Shown: positions 37,725 to 61,705 of the stretch, one piece after another
Layout: each line of letters starts with the position of its first letter
Position numbering within the stretch: position 1 is the first letter of the stretch
Source of the DNA: Syntrophales bacterium
Lineage (GTDB): Bacteria > Desulfobacterota > Syntrophia > Syntrophales > UBA2210
Assembly (NCBI GenBank): GCA_963662405.2
Contig: CAXXKT010000001.1
Span: 640,001 to 704,000 of the forward strand
DNA length: 64,000 nucleotides
Direction: 5' to 3'
Made by a program: the position numbers and the translations under genes
Notes under the pieces: model-generated
What the model saw: the letters and a program-made list of their open reading frames with translations, nothing else
Database searches by the model: none
Told to the model about the DNA's origin: nothing

Positions 37725-38660
37725 TCATATTGTGGCTTGTTCCGCTGTGCACGCGGGTTCTTCCGTTCCCATTTCGCATATAATGTGGCGAACCATTGAG
37801 GGATATACCTCTTGGAGGATATCAGGTGAGAGGAAGTATTCCTTGTGAAGCGCGAACGTATACTTGACCATCCGTTTGACCGTTTTTTCGACCGATCCCG
37901 CTCTGCGGTATACCGCCTTTATCATGGCGCAGAACTGATCTGACATCTGGATCGTTTTGGATATGAATTCGTTCGCCTCAGGACCGGTAATGTAGCCAAA
38001 GTGATCCGCGCACAGGTATTCAACATCCAAACGGCTTAATTTTCCGAGGCTTTTTTGAAACTCGGTGTAGTTCCAATTACCCGACGGGATAATCCCGTCC
38101 TTGAGAGGGATGCCCCCGCTGTCCGAGGGGAAGAGGGCCTTGATCTGGGGGATATAGGCGGATATGGAGCATTCGGAATGCCCCGGTGTCTCAAGGATCT
38201 CGACGTGAAATCCACCCAGATCGATGGAATCTCCTTCGAAAACGGTGATTCCATCGAGATCATTGCGCCAGAGCAGGTCGTACCGTGAAAGATCAAAGGG
38301 GGCGTTTGCCCTCTTCATTTCAATGGTATTGAACGAGTTGATTTCCTTGATTTTATCTGTGTCGTGAAGCACATCCCAGGCATGGCGTGAGGCGTAGACG
38401 GTCAGGTCTTCAAGACGTTTGCTGAACAGCGGAACGAGGCCGACATGGTCGAAGTGGCTATGGAGGATCAACAATTTTCGTATCTTGTTTACATCGATAG
38501 CGAATTCCCTGAGTTGATTCAGGACGTCGTAAGCGATACGACTCATGCCGCCGCTGATGATCATGGAACAGTCTGATCCCTCAACGAGATAGAGACCGGA
38601 TTCCTCCCGACCGAGGTACCACACGTGCTCACATATTTTTCCGGGGTTTCGGTGCCTCAT
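37725..38660 (-). CDS. MBL-fold metallo-hydrolase
   Basis: HSHFDHVG, TPGHS, SDS and ADH motifs. Start at ATG 38660 after AGGAG. Confidence 0.88.
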   Translation of the reverse strand: MRHRNPGKICEHVWYLGREESGLYLVEGSDCSMIISGGMSRIAYDVLNQLREFAIDVNKIRKLLILHSHFDHVGLVPLFSKRLEDLTVYASRHAWDVLHDTDKIKEINSFNTIEMKRANAPFDLSRYDLLWRNDLDGITVFEGDSIDLGGFHVEILETPGHSECSISAYIPQIKALFPSDSGGIPLKDGIIPSGNWNYTEFQKSLGKLSRLDVEYLCADHFGYITGPEANEFISKTIQMSDQFCAMIKAVYRRAGSVEKTVKRMVKYTFALHKEYFLSPDILQEVYPSMVRHIICEMGTEEPACTAEQATI

Positions 38661-38782
38661 ACGAATGTCTAAGTAGCTCCTTTCGGTTCTCTTATAATAG
38701 TTGTACCCTGCCAAAGATTGCTGTCCCGATCATGCCAACAATAAGGAAGATCTCTGCTCGTACACTGTGAGATGGGTACCTT

Positions 38783-42207: not shown

Positions 42208-42249
42208 CGTTTCAACTGCCTGATAGGTCGCGGTTACTGCGTTGCAGAA

Positions 42250-42266
42250 AGCAAGGAGCATGCCAA
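42250..42266 (-). promoter_or_regulatory. sigma54 promoter for the kinase/regulator operon
   Basis: Minus strand TTGGCATGCTCCTTGCT, matching GG-N10-GC. Confidence 0.7.
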
Positions 42267-42402
42267 TCCGGATGGTATATTAGTCCAAGTCACCTGGTTC
42301 TGTCAAACAAATGGCATGAATAGGATTTTTGCTACTTTTCCCTTCAAGAGGAACGCCCATAACCATAAGGAAAGAGAAAATATCGATGTTGATACAAAAT
42401 AC

Positions 42403-42437
42403 TTTCGCAAATTTGCAAAATATTTTCGCAAAATTTC
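42403..42437. promoter_or_regulatory. Putative enhancer (UAS) repeats
   Basis: TTTCGCAAATTTGCAAAA followed by TTTTCGCAAAA, between the two divergent sigma54 promoters. Confidence 0.5.
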
Positions 42438-42526
42438 TACATGTGAAGGGCGAGTACGACGGGCTATGAAAAGACGGCTTGATCTAACATGCTGATATAA
42501 TAGATAATATTTTTAGGGTGCAGGGG

Positions 42527-42542
42527 TGGCATAGCTTGTGCT
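42527..42542 (+). promoter_or_regulatory. sigma54 promoter for the rightward operon
   Basis: TGGCATAGCTTGTGCT, matching GG-N10-GC. Confidence 0.62.
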
Positions 42543-42590
42543 CAGGGGGTGGGGAGAGCTTCTATTATTGCAAAAGGATCATCAGGCGAC

Positions 42591-42983
42591 GTGAATAACC
42601 CAACGGCCCTTCATGGAACAAGAATATTGCTTATCGATGATGACCAGTGGATCAGAGACTCCATGACTTTGTACTTTGAAGCGGAAGGATGTCATGTCCG
42701 ATCTTTTGCCACGGCTGAGGAAGGCCTGCCTGTCTTTCAGGACGATATGTGGGATGTGATCATAGTCGATTATCACCTGCCGGGTATGGATGGATTGATG
42801 ATGCTCGATCAGATTCAGAACCGCCAGGAAGGAGTCATAAAGGTCCTGATTACCGCGTATACAAGTGATACGGCTATTTCACGTGCCCGTGACGTCGGTG
42901 TCAACGCTTTTATCGAAAAACCATTTACGGCGGATGACATTGAGACGACGCTTGTGCGACTGCTTCACGAGCGAAGTGCCTGA
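42591..42983 (+). CDS. Single-domain response regulator
   Basis: LLIDDD, VDYHLPGMDG, ITAY and EKPF motifs. Confidence 0.88.
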   Translation: MNNPTALHGTRILLIDDDQWIRDSMTLYFEAEGCHVRSFATAEEGLPVFQDDMWDVIIVDYHLPGMDGLMMLDQIQNRQEGVIKVLITAYTSDTAISRARDVGVNAFIEKPFTADDIETTLVRLLHERSA

Positions 42984-43060
42984 GAGGCGGGCGATGGATT
43001 GGTCCGGTAAGACTGTCCATGGTGCGTTGAACGAATATCATGTGATGAGAGGTAGAAACC

Positions 43061-44896
43061 ATGAATAGAAAATCTTATGTCAGATCTGTTCTTCTGATCG
43101 TAGCCGGCATACTGCTGAACCTGGGCATTACATATGTGATCGAATGCTTGGAGGGATCAGTGCCGTTCGATCATGTCGGGACTGTCTTTGTGGCAATCCT
43201 TGGCGGACCGATTGTGGGTGCTGTGGTGGGGCTGGTGAGTGTTCTGCTGTCTGCATTGCTGCAGTATGGGATTGGACTCATCGATGGGATGAACAGTGTC
43301 AACGGGGCCATATTGGGATGCCTTGTTGGCTGGCTGGCAGGACGCGGATTTTTCAAGGAATTTTGGAAAGCGATCGTCCTGGCCGTCGTGGCGGTGTTTG
43401 TGTATGCCTCCATTGTCATGCTCATTGTCACCTATGTCAGGATGACCGGATTCGGTGTGGGGTTCTGGTCCGGTATTGCCGAAGCATTCGCTTACCCCCT
43501 GGCGGTCATGAAAGATTTTATGGGGACCCTCTGGTTTGTCTTTCTCGATAAATTCTTCACCGTCCTGATCTTGTGGGCCTTTTTCAAACTGGTAGGGACG
43601 ATGCTTTTTCGGGGTGTGGCCCAAAATCCACCCACCCTTCCGGCAGCCATTAACACACAGAAGCTCGGAACAAAGCTTGCGGAAATCCCGATCGTGGGTC
43701 CTGTCTGGAAGAAGTTCGTACGTCTGGTCACTATCGTATATGTCGATTATGTTCCCCAATTTCAAAAAGGGAGCGAAACGGTAAAAACGCTCAAGACCTC
43801 GGAGGAGGAACAATACATGTTTAATCAGTACAGAGGATATGGTTTCAGATTACCGCAAAACATTTCGGAGTGGAACAAGGTCAAGGTGCAACTTGTTATC
43901 GGAACGATTCAGTTCGCCGGGGCGAATCATGATCTGCTCAATAAGGAGACAGTGGCACAACAGCTGAATCTCGGCATCGATGAAGTCACCAAGCGGATCG
44001 TCAGGATGTATAACGATCATCTTCTCTTGGTCCCCACCGATGCGGCGTTACAGACTGTTGGTTTTGCGCTGTTCTACATGGTGGTGAAACTGAAGAAGGG
44101 GACGTCTGACAAAAGGAAACAGGAAATATCAGCAATGATCCGCGACAACGATTATGCCTGCACCAGTTTTGAAACAGCGGGTGATTATGATTTCTTCCTG
44201 GGTGCTCATATTACGACCATTGATAACCTCTATAAAACTGTTTTGAAAGAGCTGTATGCCTTACCGGAGCTTGAGGAGCTGACACTGCTTCCGGTCCAGC
44301 GCATGTTGCGGCAGGAGCGTTTGAATCACTGGGATATGAAGACGGATCTGTGGCGGGAAGCGGCATTGATCGAGGGGGAATTGGATAAGCTGGCAGCGAT
44401 TCAGAGTGCACTGGACAAGACGGATCTCAAGATCCTTGAGGTGCTGATGAAGAAACGGGAGATCACCGAATATCTGAATGTCAATTTCCTGTCGAAGAAA
44501 AAAGAGGCAGGCGAGGCGATACTGCGGACACTTGATGAGAAGCGCCTTTTCGTATCACCGGTATTCCTGAATTGGATGAAGCTCAATTATAAGCCCTATT
44601 TCTTTGTCGTCAAATTCAATGAAAAGACCGACTGTGACAAAAAGATAGAACTATCGGACCATCTGGTTGAGACATATCCGGAGTTCAATCTCGCCCTTCA
44701 AGTGACTGATACTTACTATGATTTGTTCCTCGGGAGTTATCAAGGATTGGCGAATGTCGAGGCCGTGAAGAAGGCACTCAAAGAAACACCGGGAGTTGAA
44801 GATGTCAGAGAGATGGTTGCGACACGGCAGCATCGGATGTGGACGACCAAACTATCGGAAGAGAACTGGGGTGAATGCGTCATGATGTGGGAGTAG
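43061..44896 (+). CDS. ECF S-component-like membrane domain fused to tandem Lrp/AsnC-fold domains
   Basis: N-terminal 5-6 TM with DHVGTVFVAILGGP..G and LDK..T. C-terminal HTH-like VAQQLNLGIDEVTKRI, RAM-like ETAGDYDF and a second LDKTDLKILEVL unit. Confidence 0.7.
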   Translation: MNRKSYVRSVLLIVAGILLNLGITYVIECLEGSVPFDHVGTVFVAILGGPIVGAVVGLVSVLLSALLQYGIGLIDGMNSVNGAILGCLVGWLAGRGFFKEFWKAIVLAVVAVFVYASIVMLIVTYVRMTGFGVGFWSGIAEAFAYPLAVMKDFMGTLWFVFLDKFFTVLILWAFFKLVGTMLFRGVAQNPPTLPAAINTQKLGTKLAEIPIVGPVWKKFVRLVTIVYVDYVPQFQKGSETVKTLKTSEEEQYMFNQYRGYGFRLPQNISEWNKVKVQLVIGTIQFAGANHDLLNKETVAQQLNLGIDEVTKRIVRMYNDHLLLVPTDAALQTVGFALFYMVVKLKKGTSDKRKQEISAMIRDNDYACTSFETAGDYDFFLGAHITTIDNLYKTVLKELYALPELEELTLLPVQRMLRQERLNHWDMKTDLWREAALIEGELDKLAAIQSALDKTDLKILEVLMKKREITEYLNVNFLSKKKEAGEAILRTLDEKRLFVSPVFLNWMKLNYKPYFFVVKFNEKTDCDKKIELSDHLVETYPEFNLALQVTDTYYDLFLGSYQGLANVEAVKKALKETPGVEDVREMVATRQHRMWTTKLSEENWGECVMMWE

Positions 44897-44964
44897 CAAT
44901 CTCCTCGGCAGCGATGGCATATGAGCGTGGGTGGATGAGTAGTCGGTAGATTTGAGGTTGTAAA

Positions 44965-46191
44965 GTGACAAGCTTCAAGCAGTTTGCAGCACGACAGGCA
45001 TTAAAATTTTATCCTGATTTTCCGGAAGAATTTATAGAATACCTGGTTGAAAAACTTCGATGGGAAAGACTTGGATGGTTCCAGGGGAGAGTGATTATTA
45101 ATTCATATTTCCCTCCCATTCCCAGCAGGGCCGTGAATAGTGTCGTGAAGGCCTGGCGTTCAGGGATGAAGGGACGGGTTGTCCCCGAGGTAGCCACGGT
45201 AGCCGTGACCAATAAATGTCCTTATAACTGTCTGTATTGCAGCGTTCCTGACAAGACCGTCAGCGATATGTCTGCAGATCTTCTCAAACGTACGATCGGG
45301 CAGATCCAGGATATGGGAAGTTTCCATATCTCATTGACCGGCGGAGAACCGCTGTTACGCGATGATCTTGAAGATATTATCGCCTCCGTAGACGATCGCT
45401 CCGTGGTAAAGCTCTTTACGACAGGGTATTCTTTGACGAAAGAGCGGGCAAAGGCACTGAAAAAAGCGGGGCTCTTCTCGATCAACATCTCTCTCGACAG
45501 CGGTGATCAAGACATTCACGACCATGGGTGTGGATTTGATGGGGCATTCGATATCGCGTTGCGGGCGATCGAACATGCGAAACAGGCATCTCTCCTGACC
45601 TGCGTGGCGACTGTGGCGTCGCACAACGGTGTCTTGGGTGGAGAAATGAATCAGTTCTTGCGGTTTCTAAAAAAACAAGGTGTCGATGAGGTGTCGATAT
45701 TTGAACCGGCACCGACGGGGAAAATGTCGTTTCATGAGGAACTGCTCTTGAGTGATGACGAGCGAGAGGCATTGCACGATCTGCATAAGGAGATCAACGA
45801 AAGCGCGGACAAGAGATATCCGCGGGTCTTTTCATTCCCCTATGTGGAAGGCGCGGATTATATGGGATGTGGGGCCGGTTGCACACGGTTACATGTGACC
45901 GCACTGGGCCACGTGACGCCCTGTGATTTCACCTCGATTTCGTTCGGAAATATTCAACGAGAAAACATTGAAACGATATGGGACCGGATGAAGAGGTATT
46001 TCAATCAGCCGGACTGCGGTTGTTTTATATGCCATAATTTCAAGGAATTGAGAGGCATGTATGACGATCGGTCCGGTATGGCTGATGGTGATATGCTGGT
46101 AAAGAGAGGTAAGATGATGAAGGAAAGTCATCCACCGGCATTTTATAAATTGTTGATGGTGACGCAAGATACAAAACCAACGATATTTTAG
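44965..46191 (+). CDS. Radical SAM protein with SPASM/twitch domain
   Basis: TNKCPYNCLYC, LTGGEPLLR, ISLDS, GCGAG...VTPCDF...GNI and CGCFIC. Confidence 0.9.
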   Translation: MTSFKQFAARQALKFYPDFPEEFIEYLVEKLRWERLGWFQGRVIINSYFPPIPSRAVNSVVKAWRSGMKGRVVPEVATVAVTNKCPYNCLYCSVPDKTVSDMSADLLKRTIGQIQDMGSFHISLTGGEPLLRDDLEDIIASVDDRSVVKLFTTGYSLTKERAKALKKAGLFSINISLDSGDQDIHDHGCGFDGAFDIALRAIEHAKQASLLTCVATVASHNGVLGGEMNQFLRFLKKQGVDEVSIFEPAPTGKMSFHEELLLSDDEREALHDLHKEINESADKRYPRVFSFPYVEGADYMGCGAGCTRLHVTALGHVTPCDFTSISFGNIQRENIETIWDRMKRYFNQPDCGCFICHNFKELRGMYDDRSGMADGDMLVKRGKMMKESHPPAFYKLLMVTQDTKPTIF

Positions 46192-46201
46192 GAGGAACGA
46201 C

Positions 46202-46450
46202 ATGTCGAATGAGAATGAGGGGAAAATTATAGCAATTATTGCCGAAGTGTTTGAAATGAGTAAGAAAGCAGTGACGAGAGACAAGGATTTCGTCAAGGAT
46301 TTCAAGGCAAAATCGATCAAAATCATAGAGATGTGTGCGATGCTCGAAGATGAGTTCGATATTGAGATCGATATGGAAGACGCGCGAAAAAATGCGACGG
46401 TTGGTGAAGCTATTGACTATACGCTGGAACTTATCGATGCGCAACAGTGA
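46202..46450 (+). CDS. Acyl carrier protein (atypical AKS motif)
   Basis: 82 aa with DFKAKSI..E..AMLEDEFDIEI...TVGEAIDY. RBS AGGAGG. Confidence 0.85.
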   Translation: MSNENEGKIIAIIAEVFEMSKKAVTRDKDFVKDFKAKSIKIIEMCAMLEDEFDIEIDMEDARKNATVGEAIDYTLELIDAQQ

Positions 46451-46480
46451 TACGCGGTTGCTAAGGAGGTGACGCTCTTA

Positions 46481-47482
46481 ATGGAGAAGAATAATACATT
46501 CATAGATGATTTGAAGGTTCGTGTCCAGGGAAAAGGAATACGGGTTGTGTTCCCTGAAGCCGAAGAACCTCGTATCCTGAAAGCCGCATCGATCGCACGG
46601 GCTCAAAATATCGCCATTCCCATACTGGTAGGAGATCCGCAAAAGGCACATGATATTGCAAAAGACCACGGCATCGATATTACCGGGATGGAGATCATTC
46701 TTCCCGAGGAATCCGTACAGTTTGATGCCTATGCGGAGACATATCGTGCATCAACGACACTCCGCGAGGGAGCTGTGAGAAGATTGTTAAAAAAACCGGT
46801 TTTCTACGCGGATATGATGGTGAAGGTGGGAGATGCGGATGCCATGGTCGGCGGTGCGGTGTACGAAACGGCGACCGTGATTATGGCGGGAACCATGGTA
46901 ATCGGGATGAAAGAGGGAGCATCCACTCCGTCGAGTTTCTTTGTCATGGATATCCCCGGATTTGAAGGAGGAGAGAACGGCAAACTCATATTCGCGGATT
47001 GTGCTGTGGTCCCGGACCCGAGTGCCGAGGAGTTGGCTGACATCGCCATAGCGAGTGCGGATAGTGCGAAAAAGCTCCTGGGTTGTGTTCCCCGGGTCGC
47101 CATGCTCTCGTTTTCGACGAAGGGGAGCAGCCTGGAGCCCCCGGTTGAAAAGGTTATTCGTGCAACGGAAATAATCAAGGAACGGAGGTCGGATATATTG
47201 GTGGACGGGGAATTACAGGTAGATACCGCCATTGTTCCCGCGATCGCTCAGAAAAAGATCAAGGGGAAAAGCCCCGTTGCCGGTCAGGCCAACGTACTGA
47301 TCTTCCCGGATTTGAACTCGGGGAACATCGGGTACAAACTGGTCCAGCGCCTGGCGGGGGCCGACGCGATCGGTCCTCTCTTGCAGGGATTTGCGAAACC
47401 GGTGTGTGATCTGTCCCGCGGTGCAACCGTGGAGGATATCATTGGTTCGATCGTAATGACGGCGATACAGGCGATCGATTAG
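46481..47482 (+). CDS. pta: Phosphate acetyltransferase
   Basis: VVFPEAEEPR, FADCAV, VAMLSFSTKGS, DGELQVD, GNIGYKL and DLSRG motifs. Confidence 0.93.
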   Translation: MEKNNTFIDDLKVRVQGKGIRVVFPEAEEPRILKAASIARAQNIAIPILVGDPQKAHDIAKDHGIDITGMEIILPEESVQFDAYAETYRASTTLREGAVRRLLKKPVFYADMMVKVGDADAMVGGAVYETATVIMAGTMVIGMKEGASTPSSFFVMDIPGFEGGENGKLIFADCAVVPDPSAEELADIAIASADSAKKLLGCVPRVAMLSFSTKGSSLEPPVEKVIRATEIIKERRSDILVDGELQVDTAIVPAIAQKKIKGKSPVAGQANVLIFPDLNSGNIGYKLVQRLAGADAIGPLLQGFAKPVCDLSRGATVEDIIGSIVMTAIQAID

Positions 47483-47492
47483 GTTCAGGAAG

Positions 47493-47882
47493 GTGAATCC
47501 CGTGATTTATGGTGTTGGGATCGATATCGAAAAAAAAGATCGTTTGCGAAAGGCATTGGAGCTCAATGAGCGGGCGTTTCTGAAGTATGTGTTCGCCCCG
47601 CAGGAGGTGTCCTATGCACGGAGGCAGGAGGATCTGGTGTCGCATCTGACGGCTATTTTTTCTGCGAAAGAAGCGGTTCTCAAGACCGTGGGTACCGGTT
47701 GGAAAGGCGGGGTCAGGTTGACCGATATTGAGATCTGCCATGATTCTCATGGGAAGCCGGAGGTCGTCTTGTCCGGGAATCTTCAAAGGATAGCTGCCTC
47801 ACGTCATATCACGACAATCATGGTGTCGCTTTCTTATGAGGATACCTATGCGGTTTCTTACGCCGTCGCCCTGACCGGGTAA
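47493..47882 (+). CDS. acpS: Holo-ACP synthase (4'-phosphopantetheinyl transferase)
   Basis: GVGIDI, FSAKEAVLK, GKPEV and VSLS motifs. Confidence 0.9.
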   Translation: MNPVIYGVGIDIEKKDRLRKALELNERAFLKYVFAPQEVSYARRQEDLVSHLTAIFSAKEAVLKTVGTGWKGGVRLTDIEICHDSHGKPEVVLSGNLQRIAASRHITTIMVSLSYEDTYAVSYAVALTG

Positions 47883-47955
47883 GAGCATGTAGCAATAGAG
47901 GGTAGGGAACGTGAAACAAAAGATAAACAAAACGACTGTAAGAGAGGAGAGTCAC

Positions 47956-49137
47956 ATGGGAAAGATTCAAAAAAGATTTGGGTTGCTGTTTGCATTGATT
48001 GTTGCGTGTGTCTTTTTAGTGAGTGTCTCGGTTGTCGGCGCGGAAGATAAGTATTACTGGCCGCCTGAGAGAGGCTACCATAAGCTTTTACCGTTTGCGA
48101 AAGAGTATCTGAAGAAGGAAAACACATCGGGCTATGCATTGGCCAAGGCAACGAGAACGGCGGATATCGTCAACCTCGACTATGTGACGCAAAAGGTAGG
48201 GATCAGCAAGAAAGAGGCGGCAAAACGAATTAACAGAATGTTCGACGAGCACCTCATTCGACTGACGGCGGATTCTCCCATCGATAATCGAGGATTCGGA
48301 CTTTATTATACCGCTATAAAGCTGAAACCCGAAGCAACCCCGGAACAGAAGGCGAAACTATCCGAGATTATGCAGAATGAAGATCATGTCTGCACCGGGT
48401 ACGAGGTGGAAGGTGACTTTGACTTTGTTCCGGCGTTCCATGTGACGACACTGGAGGTGTCCGAAAAATATGTCAGGTCCTATTTCGAAAAGTCAGGTGT
48501 CCTTGAGTCGTATCAGTTGCTTCCCATTCAGAGAATTCTCCGTCAGGAACGTATTAATCATTGGGGTGCTCCGATTTCGATGTGGAATGAGGTCGTATAT
48601 GCCCCCAACGAATTCGAAAAACTTGCCAAGATCCAGGACAAACTGGATATAACGGACCTGAAGATCATAGAGGCGATGCAGGAAAAACGAGCGGCAAAGG
48701 ATTTTTACAACTGGGATTTTGTTGCCAAGAAGACCGGTCTCAAAAAAGACGGCCTGATCAATGGACTTGAGCACGCCTGGGCTGAGCGGATGTTTGTGCT
48801 GCCGGTTTTTATGAACTGGATGAAATTAGGGTACACGAATCACATCTTCTTCGTCAAGATGAGCAGGAAGCTGACCTCGGATGAGAAACTCGCAATCGGT
48901 GACAAATTTGCTGAAAATCCTTCATTTAATCTGGTTTTCCAGTTCAACGACTGTGAGTTCACCTATGCCCTTGGCGCCTGGACAAAACTGACCGACATCG
49001 ATGCCCTCAGAGATGCAATCAAGGGTGTCAGTGGTGTAGAGGGAATCAAGGAAGTCAACCTGACCAGACAGTGGAGGCAGTGGACGTGCCGCCTGGATGA
49101 TGACAACTGGGATAACTGCAAGTATTGCGTCGATTAA
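47956..49137 (+). CDS. Tandem Lrp/AsnC-fold protein with N-terminal signal peptide/TM anchor, paralogue of the C-terminal part of 43061-44896
   Basis: MGKIQKR, hydrophobic stretch, VGA|ED. Shares LLPxQRxLRQERxNHW, PVFxNWMKLxY and TRQxRxWTxxL..NW..C with the 611-aa protein. Confidence 0.75.
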   Translation: MGKIQKRFGLLFALIVACVFLVSVSVVGAEDKYYWPPERGYHKLLPFAKEYLKKENTSGYALAKATRTADIVNLDYVTQKVGISKKEAAKRINRMFDEHLIRLTADSPIDNRGFGLYYTAIKLKPEATPEQKAKLSEIMQNEDHVCTGYEVEGDFDFVPAFHVTTLEVSEKYVRSYFEKSGVLESYQLLPIQRILRQERINHWGAPISMWNEVVYAPNEFEKLAKIQDKLDITDLKIIEAMQEKRAAKDFYNWDFVAKKTGLKKDGLINGLEHAWAERMFVLPVFMNWMKLGYTNHIFFVKMSRKLTSDEKLAIGDKFAENPSFNLVFQFNDCEFTYALGAWTKLTDIDALRDAIKGVSGVEGIKEVNLTRQWRQWTCRLDDDNWDNCKYCVD

Positions 49138-49150
49138 TGAGTCCTCTATC

Positions 49151-49187
49151 GAAGTGGGTGAGGGATGTGTGTCCCCTCGCCCACTTC
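49151..49187 (+). repeat. Intercistronic hairpin
   Basis: GAAGTGGGTGAGGGA...TCCCCTCGCCCACTTC, with no U-tract. Confidence 0.6.
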
Positions 49188-49238
49188 ACCCCCTGCAGTA
49201 TGAAAGAAATTCGAATTAGTTGGTAAGGAGTTTGTAAT

Positions 49239-50459
49239 ATGAATATCCTGACGTTTAACTGCGGAAGCTCATCGCTGACGTACAAGATATTTCGAGCCGG
49301 GTCCGATGACGATATAGAGATCGCCGTATCCGGAAAGGCTCACCGTGTCGGTGTTACCGGAAGTGAACCATCTTTCATTGAACACAACTATAACGGACAA
49401 TATGAAAAAAATACACTGCCCATAGCGAGTCATCGGGAAGCCGCGGCGCTTGTATTTCAATATGTAAAAAAAAACGGCATACCCATTGACCTTATCGGTC
49501 ACCGGTTTGTTCATGGTGCAACATATTTCCCGAGGACCGCGATCATTACGGATGAAGCGTTAGAGACGCTTGAAATTTGCCTTCCTTTTGCCCCCCTGCA
49601 CAATCCTATCTCCATGAGTGTCATTAAAGAGTCACGCGCGACGCTCCCTTCGGTGAAGGAATATATTACATTTGACGGGGCATTTCATTCAACCATACCG
49701 GATTATGCCTATACCTATGCGCTACCGGATGAGGTTATCGAACAATATGGATACCGGAAATACGGTTTTCACGGTTTATCCTTCCAGTATGTCAGTGGGG
49801 AATCGGCACGATTTCTGAACGTCCCGCTGGAAGAGTTGAAGTTGGTGATGTGTCATCTCGGTACCGGGGGATCAAGCGTCTGTGCCGTAAAAGACGGTTA
49901 TTCCATAGACAATTCTCTCGGATACACGCCTCTCCCGGGGCTCATCATGAGTACCAGATCGGGTGACATCGATCCAATGGCCGTCATCTTTCTGATGAAC
50001 AACTATGGATATACCCCGGATAACCTGGAGGCCCTTTTGAACAAAAAGGGGGGAATCTTGGGAATATCAGGATTCTCGAGTGATCCGCGCGATATTATCG
50101 AAGCGATCAAGACGGATGAGACAAAACGGGATATCGCACAGCTCGCCCTTGATATGTATGTACAACGGCTGAAAAAATATATCGGCGCCTATATTGCGGT
50201 CATGGGGGGGATTGATGCACTGGTATTTACCGATGATGTCGGGGTCCTGAGCGCGGTGATACGGGAAGAGGTGTGCAAGAGCATGGGCTGGTGCGGAGTT
50301 GAGCTTGATTATGATCTCAATCGAACCGTCGACCCGAAACAGGATTCCATCGTGAGTACGGAGCAATCAAAGGTATACGTCATGACGGTTCCCACAGCCG
50401 AAGAACTGGTTATCTGCCGGGAGGGCCTGAAACTACAAAGAGAAGGAGAAGCAGCATGA
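49239..50459 (+). CDS. ackA: Acetate kinase, Entamoeba-like (putatively PPi-dependent) subtype
   Basis: NCGSSS, GHRFVHG, APLHN, YGFHG, MSTRSGDIDP and EEL motifs, with variant loops HLGTGGSS and FTDDVG. Confidence 0.9.
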   Translation: MNILTFNCGSSSLTYKIFRAGSDDDIEIAVSGKAHRVGVTGSEPSFIEHNYNGQYEKNTLPIASHREAAALVFQYVKKNGIPIDLIGHRFVHGATYFPRTAIITDEALETLEICLPFAPLHNPISMSVIKESRATLPSVKEYITFDGAFHSTIPDYAYTYALPDEVIEQYGYRKYGFHGLSFQYVSGESARFLNVPLEELKLVMCHLGTGGSSVCAVKDGYSIDNSLGYTPLPGLIMSTRSGDIDPMAVIFLMNNYGYTPDNLEALLNKKGGILGISGFSSDPRDIIEAIKTDETKRDIAQLALDMYVQRLKKYIGAYIAVMGGIDALVFTDDVGVLSAVIREEVCKSMGWCGVELDYDLNRTVDPKQDSIVSTEQSKVYVMTVPTAEELVICREGLKLQREGEAA

Positions 50460-51499
50460 TTGTAATTTTTGATCCTCAGCCGCCTTTCATCCGATGGTAC
50501 AAAATGACAGAGAGCGGCTTCACAGAGAAGCAGTGTATATATCAGAACGGTTGGGAAAAAGAAGTCTCGGCTGATCTCGAAGGGATCACCGGTGCCGCCT
50601 ATGTCTTGTATAACGGGGGCGATGAAATCGTCACATCACCGGTCACTATTGATCGGAGTCTTATGGCAACAGTTGAAAAGACTGTTCCCTTGTCACCTGA
50701 GCGTAATAAGATGACCCTTGAGGCAATTCGTTACTGCTATGAACAGATGCCCGGAATTCGGCATACCATTGTCTGTGAAACGGCATTGTATGGTGCCCTC
50801 CCGCCAAAATCCCGAAATTATGCAGTCCCCCTGGAACTCAGAGAGAAGGGAATAAAGCGCTACGGTGGATATGGGCTGGAACATGGATACATGGTGGAAA
50901 AGGTAAAACCGGTATTAGGAGATGCGCATCATAAGGTGATCAGTGTCTTCCTGGGGCCTGAAACCAATGTGACGGCCTTTGAAGATGGCTGTCCATTGGA
51001 GACATCAATCGGTTTTAGTACTGCGGAGGGGATCCCTTCCCTCCATGGTTGCGGTGATACCGACGCCTCGTTTGTCTTTCTGATGCAGGAGGCCGGTTGG
51101 GCACTCAAGGATATCGCCCCGGTTTTTTCTCAAAAAGGTGGACTCTGTGCGTTGATGGGAAAAGAAGATAGTACCTTAGGCGATATCCTCCATGCCGGAG
51201 TAGACACTATCGCCTACAAGGTGCTCCGATATTCCGTAATAAAATATATGGGAAATGCTGTCGCGCAACTGAGAGGGGCTGATGCCTTTCTCATACACGG
51301 CGAGAATCCGATTAAAACGGTGGGGCCGTTTATTCGGGATGTATGCCGGAATTTTGAGTTCATCGGCCTGACCTGTGCAGAGACAGATGAAGAATTGCCG
51401 GGAGGTTTGTTCATTCTTTCCGGGAAAGAATCATCGATAAAGGTGTTGTATGTCCAGTGCGCCAGGCCCGAACTGCTCGGAACATGCGTCAATCAGTAG
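50456..51499 (+). CDS. Degenerate acetate-kinase-like protein (pseudokinase)
   Basis: Collinear with AckA (YAVP..L...GIKRYG, ETSIGFS..EG, GDTD) but the catalytic motifs are replaced. Intact 347-aa ORF with an ATGA overlap with ackA. Confidence 0.75.
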   Translation: MIVIFDPQPPFIRWYKMTESGFTEKQCIYQNGWEKEVSADLEGITGAAYVLYNGGDEIVTSPVTIDRSLMATVEKTVPLSPERNKMTLEAIRYCYEQMPGIRHTIVCETALYGALPPKSRNYAVPLELREKGIKRYGGYGLEHGYMVEKVKPVLGDAHHKVISVFLGPETNVTAFEDGCPLETSIGFSTAEGIPSLHGCGDTDASFVFLMQEAGWALKDIAPVFSQKGGLCALMGKEDSTLGDILHAGVDTIAYKVLRYSVIKYMGNAVAQLRGADAFLIHGENPIKTVGPFIRDVCRNFEFIGLTCAETDEELPGGLFILSGKESSIKVLYVQCARPELLGTCVNQ

Positions 51500-51742
51500 T
51501 GCACCGAGCTTCCCCGCATCCGTTTTTTCGTTCTCCTTCAGCGGGTGGGGGGGCCGATATATAGGCAGATATAACAAGCAGATTCTGTACCTTTGAAGTC
51601 CTGCCTCGCTTGGATCGGGGGGGTATTTACACAACAATCATTCCGGTTGAGGAAATACCCCCCGATCCTTTTTTCCTGTATAGGTGTGTTGCCAGGATGG
51701 AAGCAACATGCGTGGGTACGGCAGGCTCCCCTGTCCTTCCCG

Positions 51743-52189
51743 TTACGCCGGATCCGTTCCGGTCGGCAGGGGTTCATCTCCAAGAACCAGTTCGGGTTGT
51801 CCACGCGAGCGGCGAAGATGATTGATGAATCGGAGCGTGGAACCGCGGGTGACAAGCCACCGTTCGAACCGGAACTTCCCGGGGAAATTCATGAGCGCGA
51901 TCCCGAGCAGGATCGTCAGGATACCCTGGCCGGGAAGCACCAGCAGGGTAATGCCGGACAGGACAAACACGACGCCGAAAAAGTTTTTCACGATCTGGAG
52001 CAACAGCCATATAGCTGGCCGCTCCCGGTGTATCGTGGACAACCCGGGCCGTCTCCGCCCGGAGAAATAATCTTCCGGAATTCGGACCACCACCCACGGA
52101 ACGGCCGCCAGGGCTCCCGCGAACACCACGAGCGAGACCCCCGCTATCCCGAAAAAAAGCATCTCATGGTTCTGAATCCAGCCGAACAT
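51743..52189 (-). CDS. PGPGW-domain membrane protein
   Basis: RIPEDYF and LVLPGQGILTILLG..FPGK..ER motifs. Confidence 0.8.
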   Translation of the reverse strand: MFGWIQNHEMLFFGIAGVSLVVFAGALAAVPWVVVRIPEDYFSGRRRPGLSTIHRERPAIWLLLQIVKNFFGVVFVLSGITLLVLPGQGILTILLGIALMNFPGKFRFERWLVTRGSTLRFINHLRRSRGQPELVLGDEPLPTGTDPA

Positions 52190-52600
52190 TTACCCTCTCT
52201 TGCTCATCAGTTCAAAGATAGCGCCCCCCGGCCCTCCCGCGTCGAGATAGGCAAAACGTCCCGGGTCATGGATGAGAAGATTGGCGCCCTCCTCGACCAG
52301 CCGGGCGACTTCCGCGTCGACATCGTCGACGAAAAACCCGAGGTGATGGACCCCTTCGCCCCACTTGTCGATAAATTTCGACTGGAAGATTCGACCTTCC
52401 AGGGACTGCACCAATTCGATTTCCACCGGTCCCACATAGGCGAAGGCCATGCGGATCTTCCAAGGCCGCCCTTTGACATCCGTTCCCCCGTTTTCCTGAA
52501 ACGTCCAGGGACCGATGCCGTAGAGCCGGGACCAGGTCTCGATAGTCGCATCGATGTCGGTGACTGCGTAACTGATGTGATCAATAGATTGAATCTTCAT
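52190..52600 (-). CDS. VOC family protein (methylmalonyl-CoA epimerase/glyoxalase-like)
   Basis: IDHISYAV, EIELVQ, GEGVHHLGF and IFEL motifs. RBS GAGGAGG. Confidence 0.88.
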   Translation of the reverse strand: MKIQSIDHISYAVTDIDATIETWSRLYGIGPWTFQENGGTDVKGRPWKIRMAFAYVGPVEIELVQSLEGRIFQSKFIDKWGEGVHHLGFFVDDVDAEVARLVEEGANLLIHDPGRFAYLDAGGPGGAIFELMSKRG

Positions 52601-52612
52601 AACACCTCCTCT

Positions 52613-52673
52613 TGCTAATATGCTTTTCAGCAGTCGCGGTTTTTTCTGGTCCGCTGTAAAAGTCTTGTTAGGC
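52613..52673 (-). mobile_element. Integron attC site (R' degenerate)
   Basis: Minus strand GCCTAAC (R'', overlapping the stop), then CTTTT-A-CAGC...GCTG-AAAAG with one extrahelical base, then ATTAGCA. Length 61 bp. Confidence 0.7.
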
Positions 52674-53486
52674 TATTTTGCTACATTCAATTTCGTATCG
52701 TGTTTTTGAAATAGATATGCCATAAACCTCAGCATCCAGTCCATTTTTATGCACTATGTCTATTACTTCTGATTCTAAATTTGGAGCAGCATGCGCACCA
52801 ATATAAATACTTTTAATGCTGTCTTTGGGAATATCGAACAGATAAATTGGATACCCTGATTCATCTACGTTTGGCGACCTTTTAGTGCGTTCAGTAAAAA
52901 TCCTGAGCACCCTTACTTCTTCTTCATACGCCCAGTCGATTGGTTTTTCACACAACAACTTCTCATAGTAATCAAAGTCTTGCAGGGTAGGAGCGCTACG
53001 TTGCTTGGTATATCTTACTTGGCTTGGGCATGTTCCAAGGCCAAGATATGATTTTTGATAAAAGAATTCATGTGATTCATCGAAACCAATCACAAAACCT
53101 TTGTGGCGATCGGCATAATGAGTCCACATCAATAAATTACTAAATGTTCTTGAAAGAGAAAGTATACCGATCCTTTTATTTAACCAATCCATCAGTTCAC
53201 GTCCCACATTTGATGAGGACATTTTTTCAAGGAGATGAGATTTTAATGATCGAACTTCTTCATCCAATATTTTACAGTTCTCTGATGTTTTTTCTTCACC
53301 TACCGTGTTTTCACACAAATCAAATCTGTAACGTTCTATTTGATCCATTAAATCACTAATACTAGAACTCATGTCTATCAAAGGTGACCCCTCAAAAGGA
53401 TCATTTAATGCTCTAGGCTGGGAAAATCGAATCTCTAAATTCTTCAGAACTTGGACTCTATTTGGAGGTAAGTATTTATAAAACAT
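52668..53486 (-). CDS. DUF2971 domain protein carried as an integron-type cassette
   Basis: FYKY, LNDPFE, NLLMWTHYADRHKGFVIGF and K..DWAYEEEVR motifs. Visibly AT-rich. A GTTAGGT core site lies just 5' of the start. Confidence 0.85.
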   Translation of the reverse strand: MFYKYLPPNRVQVLKNLEIRFSQPRALNDPFEGSPLIDMSSSISDLMDQIERYRFDLCENTVGEEKTSENCKILDEEVRSLKSHLLEKMSSSNVGRELMDWLNKRIGILSLSRTFSNLLMWTHYADRHKGFVIGFDESHEFFYQKSYLGLGTCPSQVRYTKQRSAPTLQDFDYYEKLLCEKPIDWAYEEEVRVLRIFTERTKRSPNVDESGYPIYLFDIPKDSIKSIYIGAHAAPNLESEVIDIVHKNGLDAEVYGISISKTRYEIECSKIA

Positions 53487-53584
53487 GAGTTATCTTTATT
53501 GACCTAACAACCATCGTTTATCTGGATCCTGACAAAAACCCCAACACGGCAAACTTGCCGAATGAAACTCCTCACAAAAAACAA

Positions 53585-53617
53585 AAAGCCCATTTCTCAT
53601 CGTGAGAACAGGGCTTT
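53585..53617 (-). terminator. Terminator-like hairpin
   Basis: Minus strand AAAGCCC-TGTTCTCA-CGA-TGAGAAAT-GGGCTTT followed by a T-rich run. Confidence 0.55.
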
Positions 53618-54182
53618 CGGCAATCCGATCATAATCTCCCCCCTTGGACTACGATTAAGGGAATATACATGAGACATGGTTAATGAAGCAACGATACCGA
53701 TCTCTTAGCGTCATCATCGTATCCTGTCAAGAAATATTGCCGGCAACATGATGGATGTACGAGGCTCTCCGGAGATGTCGATGGAGACACCCGTGGTGCG
53801 CGCCGGGTCGCTGGCATTGTTTGTATTGGATAAGGATATTCCCGCTCAGATACACTGTATTCGGATCCCTGGAAACGGAACGTTCGCGATGCCCCCGAGG
53901 AGCCCCGGCAGGTTCAATCGGGGAAAGTGATCTGCATATCAGCCGAAAACCTTTTGAATTTGTTTTTAAAATTCGCGTTTACCTGCAGCCGTTTGTATGA
54001 TGTTGTTTCTCTCCGAGGCCGTTGCACGGAGATTGGTCAAATATCTGGTAGCATTCAAACGAAAATCATGATAGGCGCTACAGGGTAAAATGAACGGGGG
54101 TCATTCTTTCTTGAGTTGCCGGAGACAATAGGTATTTCGGTGCCTTTAACCATCAAAACATAGTATTAGGAGGAGGTAAAGT

Positions 54183-56057
54183 ATGTCAGTGAACACATTG
54201 GTTGATTCTCGTGATGTCCGCTTTGTTCTCTTCGAGCTGTTGGAAATGGAAAAGTTGAATCGGTATGAGTGCTTCCAGGATTTCGACCGCTCCGTTTACG
54301 AAGACACCCTGGAACTTGCGGAAAAGATTGCCGTCGAGCAATTCTATCCGTCCAACGTCGACGGAGACCAGATAGGGCTCAAGTACGATGCCAAGGAGCA
54401 CACCGTCACCGTACCCGAATCGTTTCACAAGGGATTCCAAGCGTATGTCGAAGCCGGCTTCCACATCCTGGCATTTCCTCAGGATGTCGGTGGAGTGGGT
54501 ATCCCCACCACGATCTCCATGGCGGCCGCGGAGTATTTTAACGCGGGGAACACGGCGCTGACCATGTACGGAGGTTCGATCACCGGCGCCATGGCCCTTA
54601 TCCTGAATTTCGGGTCCGACGAGCTGAAGGAGATGTTTCTCCCCAAGATGTTCGAGGGGACCTGGGGCGGCACCATGTGTCTGACCGAGCCGAGCGCCGG
54701 CTCCGACGTGGGCGCACTCAAGAGCAAGGCGGTCAAGCAGGCCGACGGCACCTATCTCATTACCGGCCAGAAGATCTTCATCAGCAACGGCGAGTCCGAT
54801 CTGACCGAGAACATCATCCATCCTGTCCTGGCCAGGATCGAGGGTGATCCTCCGGGGACAAAGGGGATCTCTATCTTCATCGTTCCGAAGTACCTGGTCA
54901 ATCCGGACGGCTCCCTGGGCGAGCGCAACGACATGTACTGCGCCGGCGTCGAGCACAAGATGGGGCTCAAGGGAAACGCCACCTCGTCGCTGGCCTTCGG
55001 CGAAGAGGGCAAGTGTGTCGGCTACCTCCTGGGTGAGGAGCGTCAGGGGATGCCGATCATGTTTCAGCTCATGAATTCGGCCCGCATCCACACGGGCGTT
55101 CAGGCCGAGGCTTGTTCCAGCGCCGGCTACATGCACGCCGTCACCTACGCCCGCAACAGGGTCCAGAGCGTTCATATCACCCAATCCATGAATAAGGCCG
55201 CCCCGCCTGTCAACATCATCGAGCACCCCGACGTCAAGCGGATGCTGCTGTACATGAAGAGCACCGTCGAGGGAATGCGGATGCTCTGCCTCTTCCTCGC
55301 CTATCACGAGGACGTCATGCACGCCTCGAAGGACCCCGAGGAGGTGAAGGCGGCGAAGGGGATCGTCGAGATCCTGACCCCCATCGTGAAGGCGGGCATA
55401 TCCGACGAGGCCTGGCTGGTCACGTCCGAGGCAATCCAGGTGTATGGCGGTTACGGGTACTGCAGTGAATACCCGGTCGAGCAGTACGCCCGCGACGTCA
55501 AGGTCCTCTCCGTCTATGAGGGTACGAACGCCATTCAGTCCCTCGACCTCCAGATGCGCAAGATCCTCATGAACCCCGAGATGTACAACTACGGGCAGCT
55601 CAGGAAGTGGATGAACGGGACAATCGACAAGGCCAAGGGTGTGGTGGACGAGAAGTACATCTCCCCCGTCGTCAAGGGGCTCGCGAAGCTCGACGAGATC
55701 ATTGAGATGATGAAGGGACAGCTGGGTGAAGGCAAGATCTTGGCCCTGGTCCTCAACGCCACGCCGTTCCAGCAGGCCATGTTCCCCCTCGTCCTGGCCT
55801 GGCTGCACCTGTGGAGTCTCACGATCACGACCCCCAAGGCGAAGGAACTCCTGGGCGACGCAAAGGGCGAGGAGCGCCAGAAGAAGATCGCGGAAGACGC
55901 CGAGGCGGCGTACTACAGCGGCAGGATGCTCTCGTCGCAGTTCTACATCGGCGCGGAATTCCCCAAATTCTTCGGCCGGGTGGAATGCATTATGAACAAC
56001 GAAGGGGCGGCCCTGAAGGTCGATTCGGCGAACTTCACCGGAGCGCCTCTGGAATAG
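54183..56057 (+). CDS. Acyl-CoA dehydrogenase (long about 600-aa type)
   Basis: GTMCLTEPSAGSD, GQKIFIS, EHKMGLKG, QVYGGYGY and YEGTNAIQ motifs. RBS AGGAGGAGG. Confidence 0.94.
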   Translation: MSVNTLVDSRDVRFVLFELLEMEKLNRYECFQDFDRSVYEDTLELAEKIAVEQFYPSNVDGDQIGLKYDAKEHTVTVPESFHKGFQAYVEAGFHILAFPQDVGGVGIPTTISMAAAEYFNAGNTALTMYGGSITGAMALILNFGSDELKEMFLPKMFEGTWGGTMCLTEPSAGSDVGALKSKAVKQADGTYLITGQKIFISNGESDLTENIIHPVLARIEGDPPGTKGISIFIVPKYLVNPDGSLGERNDMYCAGVEHKMGLKGNATSSLAFGEEGKCVGYLLGEERQGMPIMFQLMNSARIHTGVQAEACSSAGYMHAVTYARNRVQSVHITQSMNKAAPPVNIIEHPDVKRMLLYMKSTVEGMRMLCLFLAYHEDVMHASKDPEEVKAAKGIVEILTPIVKAGISDEAWLVTSEAIQVYGGYGYCSEYPVEQYARDVKVLSVYEGTNAIQSLDLQMRKILMNPEMYNYGQLRKWMNGTIDKAKGVVDEKYISPVVKGLAKLDEIIEMMKGQLGEGKILALVLNATPFQQAMFPLVLAWLHLWSLTITTPKAKELLGDAKGEERQKKIAEDAEAAYYSGRMLSSQFYIGAEFPKFFGRVECIMNNEGAALKVDSANFTGAPLE

Positions 56058-56082
56058 ACACACTTTCAACATCAAAGCTCAC

Positions 56083-56116
56083 ATGGCCTCACGTCCTCTC
56101 GGCGTGGGGCCATTTT
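56083..56116 (+). terminator. Rho-independent terminator
   Basis: ATGGCCTCACG...CGTGGGGCCAT followed by TTT. Confidence 0.6.
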
Positions 56117-56394
56117 ATGATGAGTGGGGAAATCTCGCCGTTTTTGATTCGGGATACGATATCGTGATCCTTGCGTGGTTCAAAAAAATCCGGTGGCACG
56201 GAGTGCCGGGCTGTTACCTTCACTTCTGCCCGGATACACTGGGGCAGAAATGATAAGCCCAAACAGATCTTTTTGCTAGAAAACATTTCTTGCATACTAA
56301 AGAGAATATTGTTAGTAGCTCTGGGGTTACTTTCGAGAAAGGGCATAGCAGCGGTGAAGGTAGCACAATAAAGAAAAGCGTGAAAGGATAAATT

Positions 56395-57576
56395 ATGAGA
56401 GAAGTAGTGATTGTGAGCGGAGCAAGAACGGCCATTGGGGATTATTTAGGATCGCTTTCGAGTCTTAATGCGGTGCAATTGGGCATTATTGCGCTCAATG
56501 GCGCGCTGGAAAAGGTGGGGGTTGATAAAAACCTGATTCAGGAACTGATCTGCGGCCATGTCAACCAGGCCGGTGCACCGGGAAACACCGCGCGCCACAT
56601 TGCAATGAACGTAGAATTGCCGGTGGAATCATTTGCCTTTACCGTGCATCAGCAGTGTGCCTCGTCGATGCGCGGCGCCGAGCTGCTGGCGCAGGAGATT
56701 ATGCTGGGCAAGGTCGATGCCGGCGCGGTTGTCGGTGTGGAGAGCATGAGCAGCGCCCCCTATCTGCTCTTCGGCGCCCGCAAGGGATATCGCCTCAATG
56801 ACGGCGAGCAGATCAAGGACAGTCTGATGATCGGCGGTCTGGTGGATGAGCTCCTCGGGTATCATATGGGGATCACGGCGGACAACATCGCCGATAAATA
56901 CAACATCTCCCGTCAGGAGCAGGACGAATGGGCACTGATGAGCCATCAGCGCGCCTGCGCCGCCATCGAAAAGGGCTGGTTCAAGGACGAAATCATCCCG
57001 GTCGAGATCAAGACCAAGAAGGGCACGACCATCTTCGATACGGATGAGCACCCCCGGGCCGACACGAACATGGAGGCGCTGAGCAAGCTCAGACCCGTCT
57101 TCAAAAAAGACGGCACGGTCACGGCCGGCAACGCATCCGGCCTGAATGACGCCGGTTCCTGCCTGATTCTGATGGCCGCCGAAAAGGCGAAAGAACTGGG
57201 ACTCACCCCCATTGCAAAAGTCGTCGCGTCGGCTCCCGGTTCGGTCGAGCCCCGCGTCATGGGGTTGGGCGTCGTTCCGGCGGTACAGAACGCCCTGAAA
57301 TTCGCCGACATGAAACTGGAAGACATCGATTACTTCGAGTTGAACGAGGCCTTTGCCGCGCAGGTAATCGGCTGCAACCGCGAGTTCAAGCTTGATGTTG
57401 AGAAGATCAACGCGGTCGGTTCCGGCATCAGCATGGGGCACCCCGTCGGCGCGACCGGTGCCCGCCTGATCGTGACCATGATGAACGAATTGAAACGGCA
57501 AGGCAAGAAATTCGGTTGTGCCTCTCTGTGCGCCAGCGGCGGACCGGGCCACGCGTTTATTATAGAAATGCTGTAA
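56395..57576 (+). CDS. Acetyl-CoA acyltransferase (thiolase)
   Basis: QCASS, TAGNASGLND, NEAFA, GHPVGATG and LCASGG motifs. Confidence 0.95.
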   Translation: MREVVIVSGARTAIGDYLGSLSSLNAVQLGIIALNGALEKVGVDKNLIQELICGHVNQAGAPGNTARHIAMNVELPVESFAFTVHQQCASSMRGAELLAQEIMLGKVDAGAVVGVESMSSAPYLLFGARKGYRLNDGEQIKDSLMIGGLVDELLGYHMGITADNIADKYNISRQEQDEWALMSHQRACAAIEKGWFKDEIIPVEIKTKKGTTIFDTDEHPRADTNMEALSKLRPVFKKDGTVTAGNASGLNDAGSCLILMAAEKAKELGLTPIAKVVASAPGSVEPRVMGLGVVPAVQNALKFADMKLEDIDYFELNEAFAAQVIGCNREFKLDVEKINAVGSGISMGHPVGATGARLIVTMMNELKRQGKKFGCASLCASGGPGHAFIIEML

Positions 57577-61548: not shown

Positions 61549-61705
61549 CCTCGTCCCACATTTTTTGCATAACACAATCTCTTTTGAGAGAATACTCCCC
61601 TTCCTCCCTATGTTCAAGTATCCCGGACCGGATCCGGATCATGCCCGGTACGGCAAGGTGGGGTTTCCTTCGTCACGCATGGCGGAACCGCGCGCTATGC
61701 GTCAC

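Follow-up and report, generated by a model that had tools for sequence, protein, structure and literature searches.

An acetate kinase (ACK) gene of the type known from the amoeba Entamoeba histolytica is located close to the sole phosphotransacetylase gene (pta) in a 64,000-nucleotide stretch of the genome of a Syntrophales bacterium (assembly GCA_963662405.2, contig CAXXKT010000001.1, positions 640,001 to 704,000). This stretch is referred to here as the window, and all coordinates count from its first letter unless another contig is named. By its donor-site motifs and its position in the ACK tree the predicted kinase belongs to the clade of the E. histolytica enzyme (EhACK; EC 2.7.2.12), suggesting that it may use pyrophosphate (PPi) and inorganic phosphate (Pi) instead of ATP and ADP. 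To our knowledge, EhACK is still described as the sole acetate kinase shown to use PPi/Pi. That Pta and the bacterial kinase together make PPi from acetyl-CoA is, in our assessment, an evenly balanced proposition. The kinase gene is followed by a degenerate ACK paralog, with whose product the kinase probably forms a heterodimer according to structure prediction, and the whole cluster resides on a horizontally acquired genomic island. The genome (3.8 Mb on 3 contigs, rated 100 % complete) provides a metabolic background in which PPi formation could be of use.

Gene integrity, catalytic residues and acetate pocket

The kinase (P0001) is encoded by an intact open reading frame (ORF) on the forward strand (49239-50459; 406 amino acids, ATG start, no internal stop codon), as proposed by a first-pass annotation of the window made without database searches. 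The protein matches Pfam family PF00871 (Acetate_kinase) over profile positions 2-391 of 392 (392.6 bits, cut-off 22) as well as TIGR00016 (393.1 bits, cut-off 293.4), while reaching none of the NCBIfam equivalog cut-offs. Among solved structures (HMMER), the best match is EhACK (4H0O; 2.4e-106, 359 bits), followed at lower scores by the acetate kinases of Thermotoga maritima (2IIR, 319 bits) and Methanosarcina thermophila (1G99, 292 bits; MtACK).

In the alignment from the 4H0O search, the catalytic residues of MtACK (N7, R91, H123, D148, H180, R241 and E384) have identical counterparts in the kinase (N7, R89, H121, D146, H178, R240 and E388), all of which are invariant across a clade alignment of 25 sequences, except for N7, which is nearly so. 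The residues forming the acetate pocket of MtACK (V93, L122, F179 and P232; PMC5517563) are likewise kept (V91, L120, F177 and P231). Since catalytic residues and acetate pocket are both retained, we read the protein as a putatively functional enzyme for acetate or acetyl phosphate.

Donor-site motifs

The PHOSPHATE2 loop of the kinase reads HLGTGGSS (residues 206-213) and its ADENOSINE motif VFTDDVG (residues 329-335); the N-terminus is MNILTFNCGSSSLTYK...SGKAHRVGVTGSEPSFIEHNYNGQ...GHRFVHGATYF. All three had been pointed out in the first-pass annotation, together with the corresponding motifs of EhACK. The latter also proved correct: in the HMMER alignment, the respective columns of 4H0O hold HLGTGGSS and FTDQMG, and the two proteins align closely at their N-termini. 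The E. histolytica protein used here (P0271) fits the literature numbering (T201, G203, D272, R274, D322-Q323-M324 and E327). Chance can be dismissed as the origin of the motifs in the kinase, because HLGTGG[SA]S is present in all 120 and FTDD[IV]G in 104 of its 120 best homologs from a search of 5.8 billion proteins.

Alignment columns were compared between 46 proteins with extended PHOSPHATE2 loop and 100 canonical representatives. Since this loop served to define the two groups, circularity affects the Thr column and that of the inserted Gly but no other; all 100 canonical representatives have a gap at the insertion. At position 331 (MtACK numbering), where Gly opens the adenosine pocket, every one of the 100 canonical proteins has Gly, whereas 89 % of the extended-loop proteins have Asp; the Gly239 column holds Gly in 87 % of the former and Ser in 93 % of the latter. 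In the kinase, Asn211, Gly239 and Gly331 of MtACK are replaced by Thr209 plus inserted Gly, Ser238 and Asp333, respectively. Thus, it lacks the signatures of ATP-dependent ACKs, i.e., HLGNGxS with Asn211 and without insertion, Gly239 and Gly331. Altering these three residues of MtACK strongly cut catalysis or changed the use of nucleoside triphosphates (PMC4390882).

Signatures of EhACK, on the other hand, are present. The extended PHOSPHATE2 loop (T201 and the extra Gly203 of EhACK) corresponds to T209-G210-G211 of the kinase, Asp322 to D332, and Asp272/Arg274 of LOOP4 to D282/R284 (SSDPRD); across the 25 aligned clade sequences, D332 and D282 do not vary and R284 hardly does. Five residues of EhACK (T201, D322, Q323, M324 and E327) are reported to occlude the ATP cleft (PMC5931981). 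The kinase keeps the equivalents of two of them (T201 and D322) in addition to the extra Gly, the deletion of which (Gly203) yielded an inactive EhACK variant (PMC5517563).

Phylogeny and closest known enzymes

A quick tree was built from 140 rows, namely P0001-P0003, one in nine of the proteins P0004-P0120, P0271 and each representative with a length of 375-450 amino acids; it united 28 extended-loop rows with Entamoeba and Mastigella in one clade (SH-aLRT 96). In a more careful tree of 55 chosen rows (27 extended-loop, 28 canonical; LG+G4), the bootstrap of which had not fully settled (correlation 0.962), the core clade comprising the kinase, Entamoeba and Mastigella received a support of 100/96. 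All extended-loop proteins fall on one side of a branch supported by 97/88 and present in 96 % of 200 bootstrap trees, such that the loop label needs only one change. The comparison with amoebal and canonical ACKs suggested by the first-pass annotation thus places the kinase in the Entamoeba clade, and a grouping with canonical AckA was not seen in it. The earlier idea that the gene stems from a lineage related to the amoebal one holds for the clade but not for a closest bacterial relative, since the kinase belongs to a sister subclade of 14 rows (99/90), whereas the sequences of Entamoeba and Mastigella cluster with P0138 and P0230 (98/88).

The extended loop occurs in 17 of the best 150 representatives at 50 % identity, including those of E. 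dispar/E. histolytica and Mastigella eilhardi. Named homologs among the best 120 originate from metagenome-assembled genomes (MAGs) of Omnitrophota, Elusimicrobia, Phycisphaerae, Brevinematales, Anaerolineaceae and Bacteroidota, where they are annotated plainly as "acetate/propionate family kinase". Acetate kinase is listed among the genes laterally acquired by the archamoebal ancestor (Zarsky et al. 2021, PMC8136499).

EhACK shares with the kinase 46 % sequence identity, the clade, T201, the inserted Gly203, D322 and D272/R274, as well as several changes relative to MtACK (K14 to T, T182 to L, H184 to an aromatic residue, G239 to S). The kinase differs in being bacterial, in forming an operon with Pta, in being translationally coupled to a dead paralog and in the exchanges Q323 to D, M324 to V and E327 to L. 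Related bacterial sequences were described by Dang & Ingram-Smith (2017, PMC5517563) in a section on other possible PPi-dependent ACKs, i.e., those of four Anaerolineaceae (Ornatilinea, Longilinea, Flexilinea and Leptolinea) and some digester metagenome sequences. According to that description their PHOSPHATE2 loop is extended, the conserved Asp is present and another Asp stands at the position of Gln323; an Anaerolineaceae MAG protein in the present set (P0092) has 55 % identity to the kinase. The Anaerolineaceae ACKs belong to another phylum, and the paper mentions neither the paired paralog nor the gene context. Accordingly, PPi use by bacterial FTDD kinases was already published in 2017 as a hypothesis, and the kinase is a further member of that set. 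Canonical ACKs (M. thermophila 1G99/1TUY, T. maritima 2IIR, AckA/TdcD) share with it the fold family, the catalytic residues and the acetate pocket; they differ by Asn211, an uninterrupted PHOSPHATE2 loop, Gly239, Gly331 and the GEN of FT(A/G)GIGEN.

A degenerate paralog coupled to the kinase gene

The start of the gene directly downstream overlaps the stop of the kinase gene by 4 nt. Its product (P0290, 347 amino acids) belongs to the ACK family (PF00871, 114 bits, profile positions 76-383; hhalign probability of 100 against the ACK clade). It possesses no equivalents of Arg89, His178, His206, Arg240 and Glu388 of the kinase. In detail, the PHOSPHATE1 motif GSSS is changed to PxPPF and N7 to D, GHRFVHG is represented by an Arg-less YNGG stretch, FHG by GYG and HLG by F/YLG, TRSGD is replaced by an Arg-less stretch, and the region of Glu388 is unconserved. 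From these replacements, P0290 is judged to be catalytically dead.

This arrangement is widespread among extended-loop kinases. A survey of 80 metagenome loci (L020-L099), based on our own ORF calls and on hidden Markov models (HMMs), revealed 36 paired and 14 unpaired loci, the latter despite at least 900 nt of room; another 18 were too short and 12 were dropped for want of a called ACK ORF. Of the 50 informative loci, 36 thus have the dead paralog directly behind the kinase. A word-based search for homologs of the paralog retrieved only 19 proteins and understates the family, as the 36 loci from the HMM locus scan illustrate. The dead paralog is immediately followed in 13 loci by an ORF for a divergent member of PF02649 (FolE2 family, 77-104 bits); other subgroups of loci carry an M20-like gene upstream together with a XylR-type activator or an XRE-cupin regulator. 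A FolE2-like or M20-like third gene is absent from the window cluster, and a FolE2-like gene was also not found in L005, the closest public relative of the locus; the sole PF02649 match of the genome is a far-off, high-scoring FolE2 (335.8 bits). In place of a third gene, the window cluster has genes for Pta and AcpS, for a radical SAM protein and for AsnC-like membrane proteins. No paper on a paired dead ACK paralog was found in a literature search.

Structure prediction of the kinase with P0290 yielded a complex with an ipSAE of 0.94 (best control 0.00), a mark reached by 116 of 157 solved complexes versus 2 of 215 mismatched pairs. The agreement of contacts between runs is 99 % or more, and the pLDDT of the partner is at least 91. 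The predicted interface lies in the C-terminal domains, involving kinase residues 155-174, 228-278, 302-324 and 348-352. Kinase and dead paralog probably work as a heterodimer.

Metabolic setting

A second intact ACK was not found in the genome. Another ACK-family match on contig 3 (about 331940-332290; L003:1480-1830) was considered as a second kinase and rejected, as it represents an N-terminal relic of about 100 residues with an in-frame TGA. The relic is of the canonical GGSSSIK type and joined to unrelated membrane-protein sequence, which suggests that an ordinary ackA was once present in the lineage and then lost.

The genome encodes a membrane-bound H+-translocating pyrophosphatase (H+-PPase; 852 bits), which the first-pass annotation had proposed to look for, and two AcsA proteins above the equivalog cut-off (1007.7 and 996.4 bits). 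A family I soluble pyrophosphatase (PPase; PF00719) was not detected; family II was not searched. Seven of seven genomes of the same genus are without ACK match and six of the seven without PTA_PTB match. The remaining genome carries ptb-like genes in pairs, one of which lies beside a butyrate-kinase-like match.

A comparable setting is described for Syntrophus aciditrophicus by James et al. (2016, PMC4992975), where pta and ack are absent and Acs1 makes ATP out of acetyl-CoA together with AMP and PPi, and where cytoplasmic PPase was undetectable. Substrate activation is stated to supply this species with less PPi than the acetyl-CoA it produces. On benzoate, only one PPi is reported to be formed there per three acetyl-CoA, with the rest to come from elsewhere, for which membrane PPases running in reverse were suggested (PMC4992975). 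The window genome resembles S. aciditrophicus in its two AcsA, the H+-PPase, the missing family I PPase and the scarcity of ACK and PTA_PTB in its genus. As the pattern in the genus matches the description of S. aciditrophicus, the genus may be Syntrophus. It differs by adding Pta and an Entamoeba-type ACK, whose link to Acs we infer.

Proposed route from acetyl-CoA to pyrophosphate

Phosphoryl acceptor, heterodimer and physiological role would be as follows. Pta would convert acetyl-CoA and Pi to acetyl phosphate, from which the kinase, probably paired with the dead paralog, would form acetate and PPi with Pi as acceptor, as does EhACK. The PPi could then drive Acs (acetyl-CoA + AMP + PPi to ATP) or feed the H+-PPase, since the genome has an H+-PPase and two Acs and is without family I PPase. 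Via Acs, the net reaction would be 2 acetyl-CoA + AMP + 2 Pi to 2 acetate + 2 CoA + ATP. The free energy of hydrolysis of acetyl phosphate is about twice that of PPi, which is why the kinase reaction is expected to run towards PPi. This fits the strong preference of EhACK for the PPi-forming direction (PMC5517563, PMC5931981). One may further speculate that kinase and dead paralog constitute a heterodimeric substrate-level PPi synthase that closes a PPi deficit of the S. aciditrophicus type, with the amoebal enzyme as a partner-less offshoot; in this full form the proposal is doubtful.

Points against pyrophosphate formation and alternative functions

Several points weigh against PPi formation by the kinase. 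Three of the five residues that occlude the ATP cleft of EhACK are exchanged (Q323 by D333, M324 by V334 and E327 by L337), although the Q323G-M324I variant of EhACK retained use of Pi/PPi (PMC5517563), so that Gln323, Met324 and Glu327 are not proven to be required. Opening the pocket of EhACK or closing that of MtACK left the specificity unswitched (Dang & Ingram-Smith 2017, PMC5517563), and the same is reported there for the mutants of Yoshioka et al.; because such reciprocal mutants kept their specificity, the motifs are weak predictors of the donor. For the FTDD enzymes, Dang & Ingram-Smith leave open whether these depend on PPi or use neither ATP nor PPi (PMC5517563), and our literature search found no characterised bacterial PPi-dependent ACK. 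Apart from the window and L005, a Pta gene adjoins the kinase gene in just one of the 80 metagenome loci, L048. Regarding the heterodimer, the complex score may merely reflect likeness to solved ACK homodimers. Moreover, EhACK was assayed and crystallised alone (4H0O contains two chains of one sequence), while most bacterial members have a dead partner and often a FolE2-like gene, meaning that the bacterial system may differ.

These points leave room for an acetyl-phosphate/acetate phosphotransferase with another donor or acceptor, which might be a different nucleotide, polyphosphate or a substrate brought in by the dead paralog or by other partners. Bacterial members typically have an Asp at the position of EhACK Gln323 (89 % of 46), the possibility was raised by Dang & Ingram-Smith (PMC5517563), and the accessory genes foreign to Entamoeba (pseudo-ACK in 36 of 50 loci, FolE2-like gene in 13 loci) suggest extra chemistry or regulation. 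We nevertheless consider such a donor unlikely, as the sole characterised member of the clade uses Pi/PPi, the extended loop and D322, both unique to the clade, are shared with EhACK, and the window cluster has no FolE2-like gene. An ordinary ATP-forming ACK with functionally neutral loop divergence, in which case Pta-Ack would simply make ATP, is yet more improbable. It would agree with the fully intact catalytic and acetate-pocket residues, with the genuine Pta alongside, an arrangement known from classic pta-ack operons, and with Val334, which matches the Ile/Val of ATP-dependent enzymes. However, Asp occupies the Gly331 position at which 100 of 100 canonical enzymes have Gly, Asn211 and Gly239 are replaced as well despite their importance for catalysis in MtACK (PMC4390882), and EhACK with the same loop insertion cannot use ATP or ADP (PMC5517563).

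Finally, the ACK/pseudo-ACK pair might serve regulatory or housekeeping control of acetyl phosphate, or act on another short acyl phosphate, possibly in connection with the radical SAM, AsnC-like and AcpS genes. For E. histolytica, the function of ACK is described as undefined and the source of acetyl phosphate as not known (PMC9983610, PMC8136499), a two-component/sigma-54 regulator pair flanks the cluster, and the 611-amino-acid protein and the radical SAM protein recur beside the ACK pair of L025 (802.7 and 517.7 bits). Retention of the acetate pocket and adjacency of Pta speak against such a role, and the recurrence of the radical SAM gene amounts to one independent locus; of the alternatives, this one appears the most remote.

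If Pta and the kinase do form PPi from acetyl-CoA, the kinase would be the first from a bacterium with this product, and organisms that live close to the thermodynamic limit would have a source of PPi at the substrate level. Its conserved dead partner would add a new case to the pseudoenzyme subunits of central metabolism. Should ATP be used instead, the PHOSPHATE2 and ADENOSINE signatures would fail to predict donor choice. The kinase is a good test case, being the only intact ACK of a complete genome and standing beside the only Pta in a PPi-centred lineage.

Genomic island and horizontal origin

The kinase cluster is located on a strain-specific island of about 15 kb (Table 1). Comparison of positions 36500-56400 with 5 genomes of the same genus yielded matches of 84-90 % only at 36793-37376 and 54040-56056, while the island centre gave conserved-domain matches only. 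The G+C content is 0.45-0.53 over 38-53 kb and about 0.55 outside. An extended-loop kinase was found in none of 40 sampled relatives (7 of the same genus, 17 of the same family and 16 of the same order); the best ACK matches in relatives have 31-43 % identity and display the canonical HLGxGxS and FT[AG]GIG motifs in 12 of 12 loci checked. A tRNA gene as island marker was not detected in 36000-55000. The cluster has thus been acquired horizontally.

The closest public relative of the locus, L005, is a contig labelled as uncultured Syntrophaceae. Its kinase is 90 % identical, the gene order (radical SAM, Pta, AcpS, kinase, paralog) is the same, and the ACK-family genes found in this incomplete genome are the kinase and the paralog only.

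Gene neighbourhood

Table 1. Features of the kinase cluster and its surroundings (window coordinates)
Feature	Position	Strand	Evidence or remark
Strain-specific island with cluster, ~15 kb	37377-52204 (approximate)	.	Comparison with 5 same-genus genomes, G+C content
Sensor kinase (PAS/GAF/HisKA) and sigma-54 activator, divergent pair	38783-42261	-	Profile matches
Stand-alone response-regulator receiver	42549-42983	+	PF00072, 84.5 bits
611-aa membrane protein, ECF-S-like N-terminus and AsnC/NirDL-like C-terminal part	43061-44896	+	Profile matches
Radical SAM/SPASM protein	44965-46191	+	PF04055, 87.3 bits; PF13186
Pta, sole PTA_PTB gene of the genome	46469-47482	+	PF01515, 352.7 bits; TIGR00651, 327.9 bits versus cut-off 311.2
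Holo-ACP synthase AcpS, extra copy	47493-47882	+	PF01648, 68.8 bits
408-aa protein, N-terminal hydrophobic segment, tandem AsnC/NirDL-like winged helix-turn-helix features	47911-49137	+	Weak Pfam/NCBIfam matches
Entamoeba-type acetate kinase (P0001)	49239-50459	+	PF00871, 4H0O match, clade with Entamoeba/Mastigella
PHOSPHATE2 loop HLGTGGSS	49854-49877	+	Thr for Asn211 and one inserted Gly
ADENOSINE motif VFTDDVG	50223-50243	+	Asp332 = EhACK D322; Asp333 at MtACK Gly331 position
Degenerate ACK paralog (P0290, 347 aa)	50456-51499	+	Start overlaps kinase stop by 4 nt

A gap of 278 nt separates the radical SAM gene from pta. The radical SAM protein stays below all NCBIfam equivalog cut-offs, the best matches being MoaA-archaeal, GeoRSP and AhbD. 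Besides AcpS, two more ACPS matches are present elsewhere in the genome. The 408-amino-acid protein between AcpS and the kinase is paralogous to the C-terminal portion of the 611-amino-acid protein (36 % identity to residues 247-607), and a protein atlas provides helix-turn-helix/AsnC-type leads for it (0.89-0.91). The orthologs of the 611-amino-acid and radical SAM proteins referred to above are encoded at an unrelated metagenome locus with ACK pair (L025:1123-4202).

Genes downstream of the paralog are convergent. An ORF of 341 amino acids on the forward strand (51593-52618) was tried as last gene of the operon and rejected, having no family match at E=1 and low atlas recognition (943). The opposite strand carries a PGPGW gene (51743-52189, reverse strand) and a Glyoxalase_4 gene (52190-52600, reverse strand), the DNA of the latter being 70-78 % identical to same-genus genomes; the forward ORF is probably not a gene.

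A sigma-54 pattern scan of the window gave 30 matches versus 22.5 expected, a number equalled in 8 of 100 shuffles. One -24/-12-like element (42527-42542, forward strand; GG-N10-GC spacing, 2 mismatches) is positioned upstream of the response regulator and near the divergent sigma-54 activator; with a total count not above chance, it is a lead only. Scans for sigma-70 promoters and terminators did not exceed shuffled sequences, and an Rfam scan of 42000-54500 (E<=0.01) gave no match.

Outside the island, a 624-amino-acid acyl-CoA dehydrogenase, a thiolase and a FadD-type acyl-CoA ligase are encoded at 54183-57576 and 59533-61617, a set typical of the β-oxidation of fatty or aromatic acids in a syntroph. 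An intergenic stretch of about 127 nt within an AT-rich gap (53516-53642) has no Rfam or tRNA match and shares 74-79 % identity with several same-genus contigs; it may represent either a repeat or a small RNA not yet annotated.

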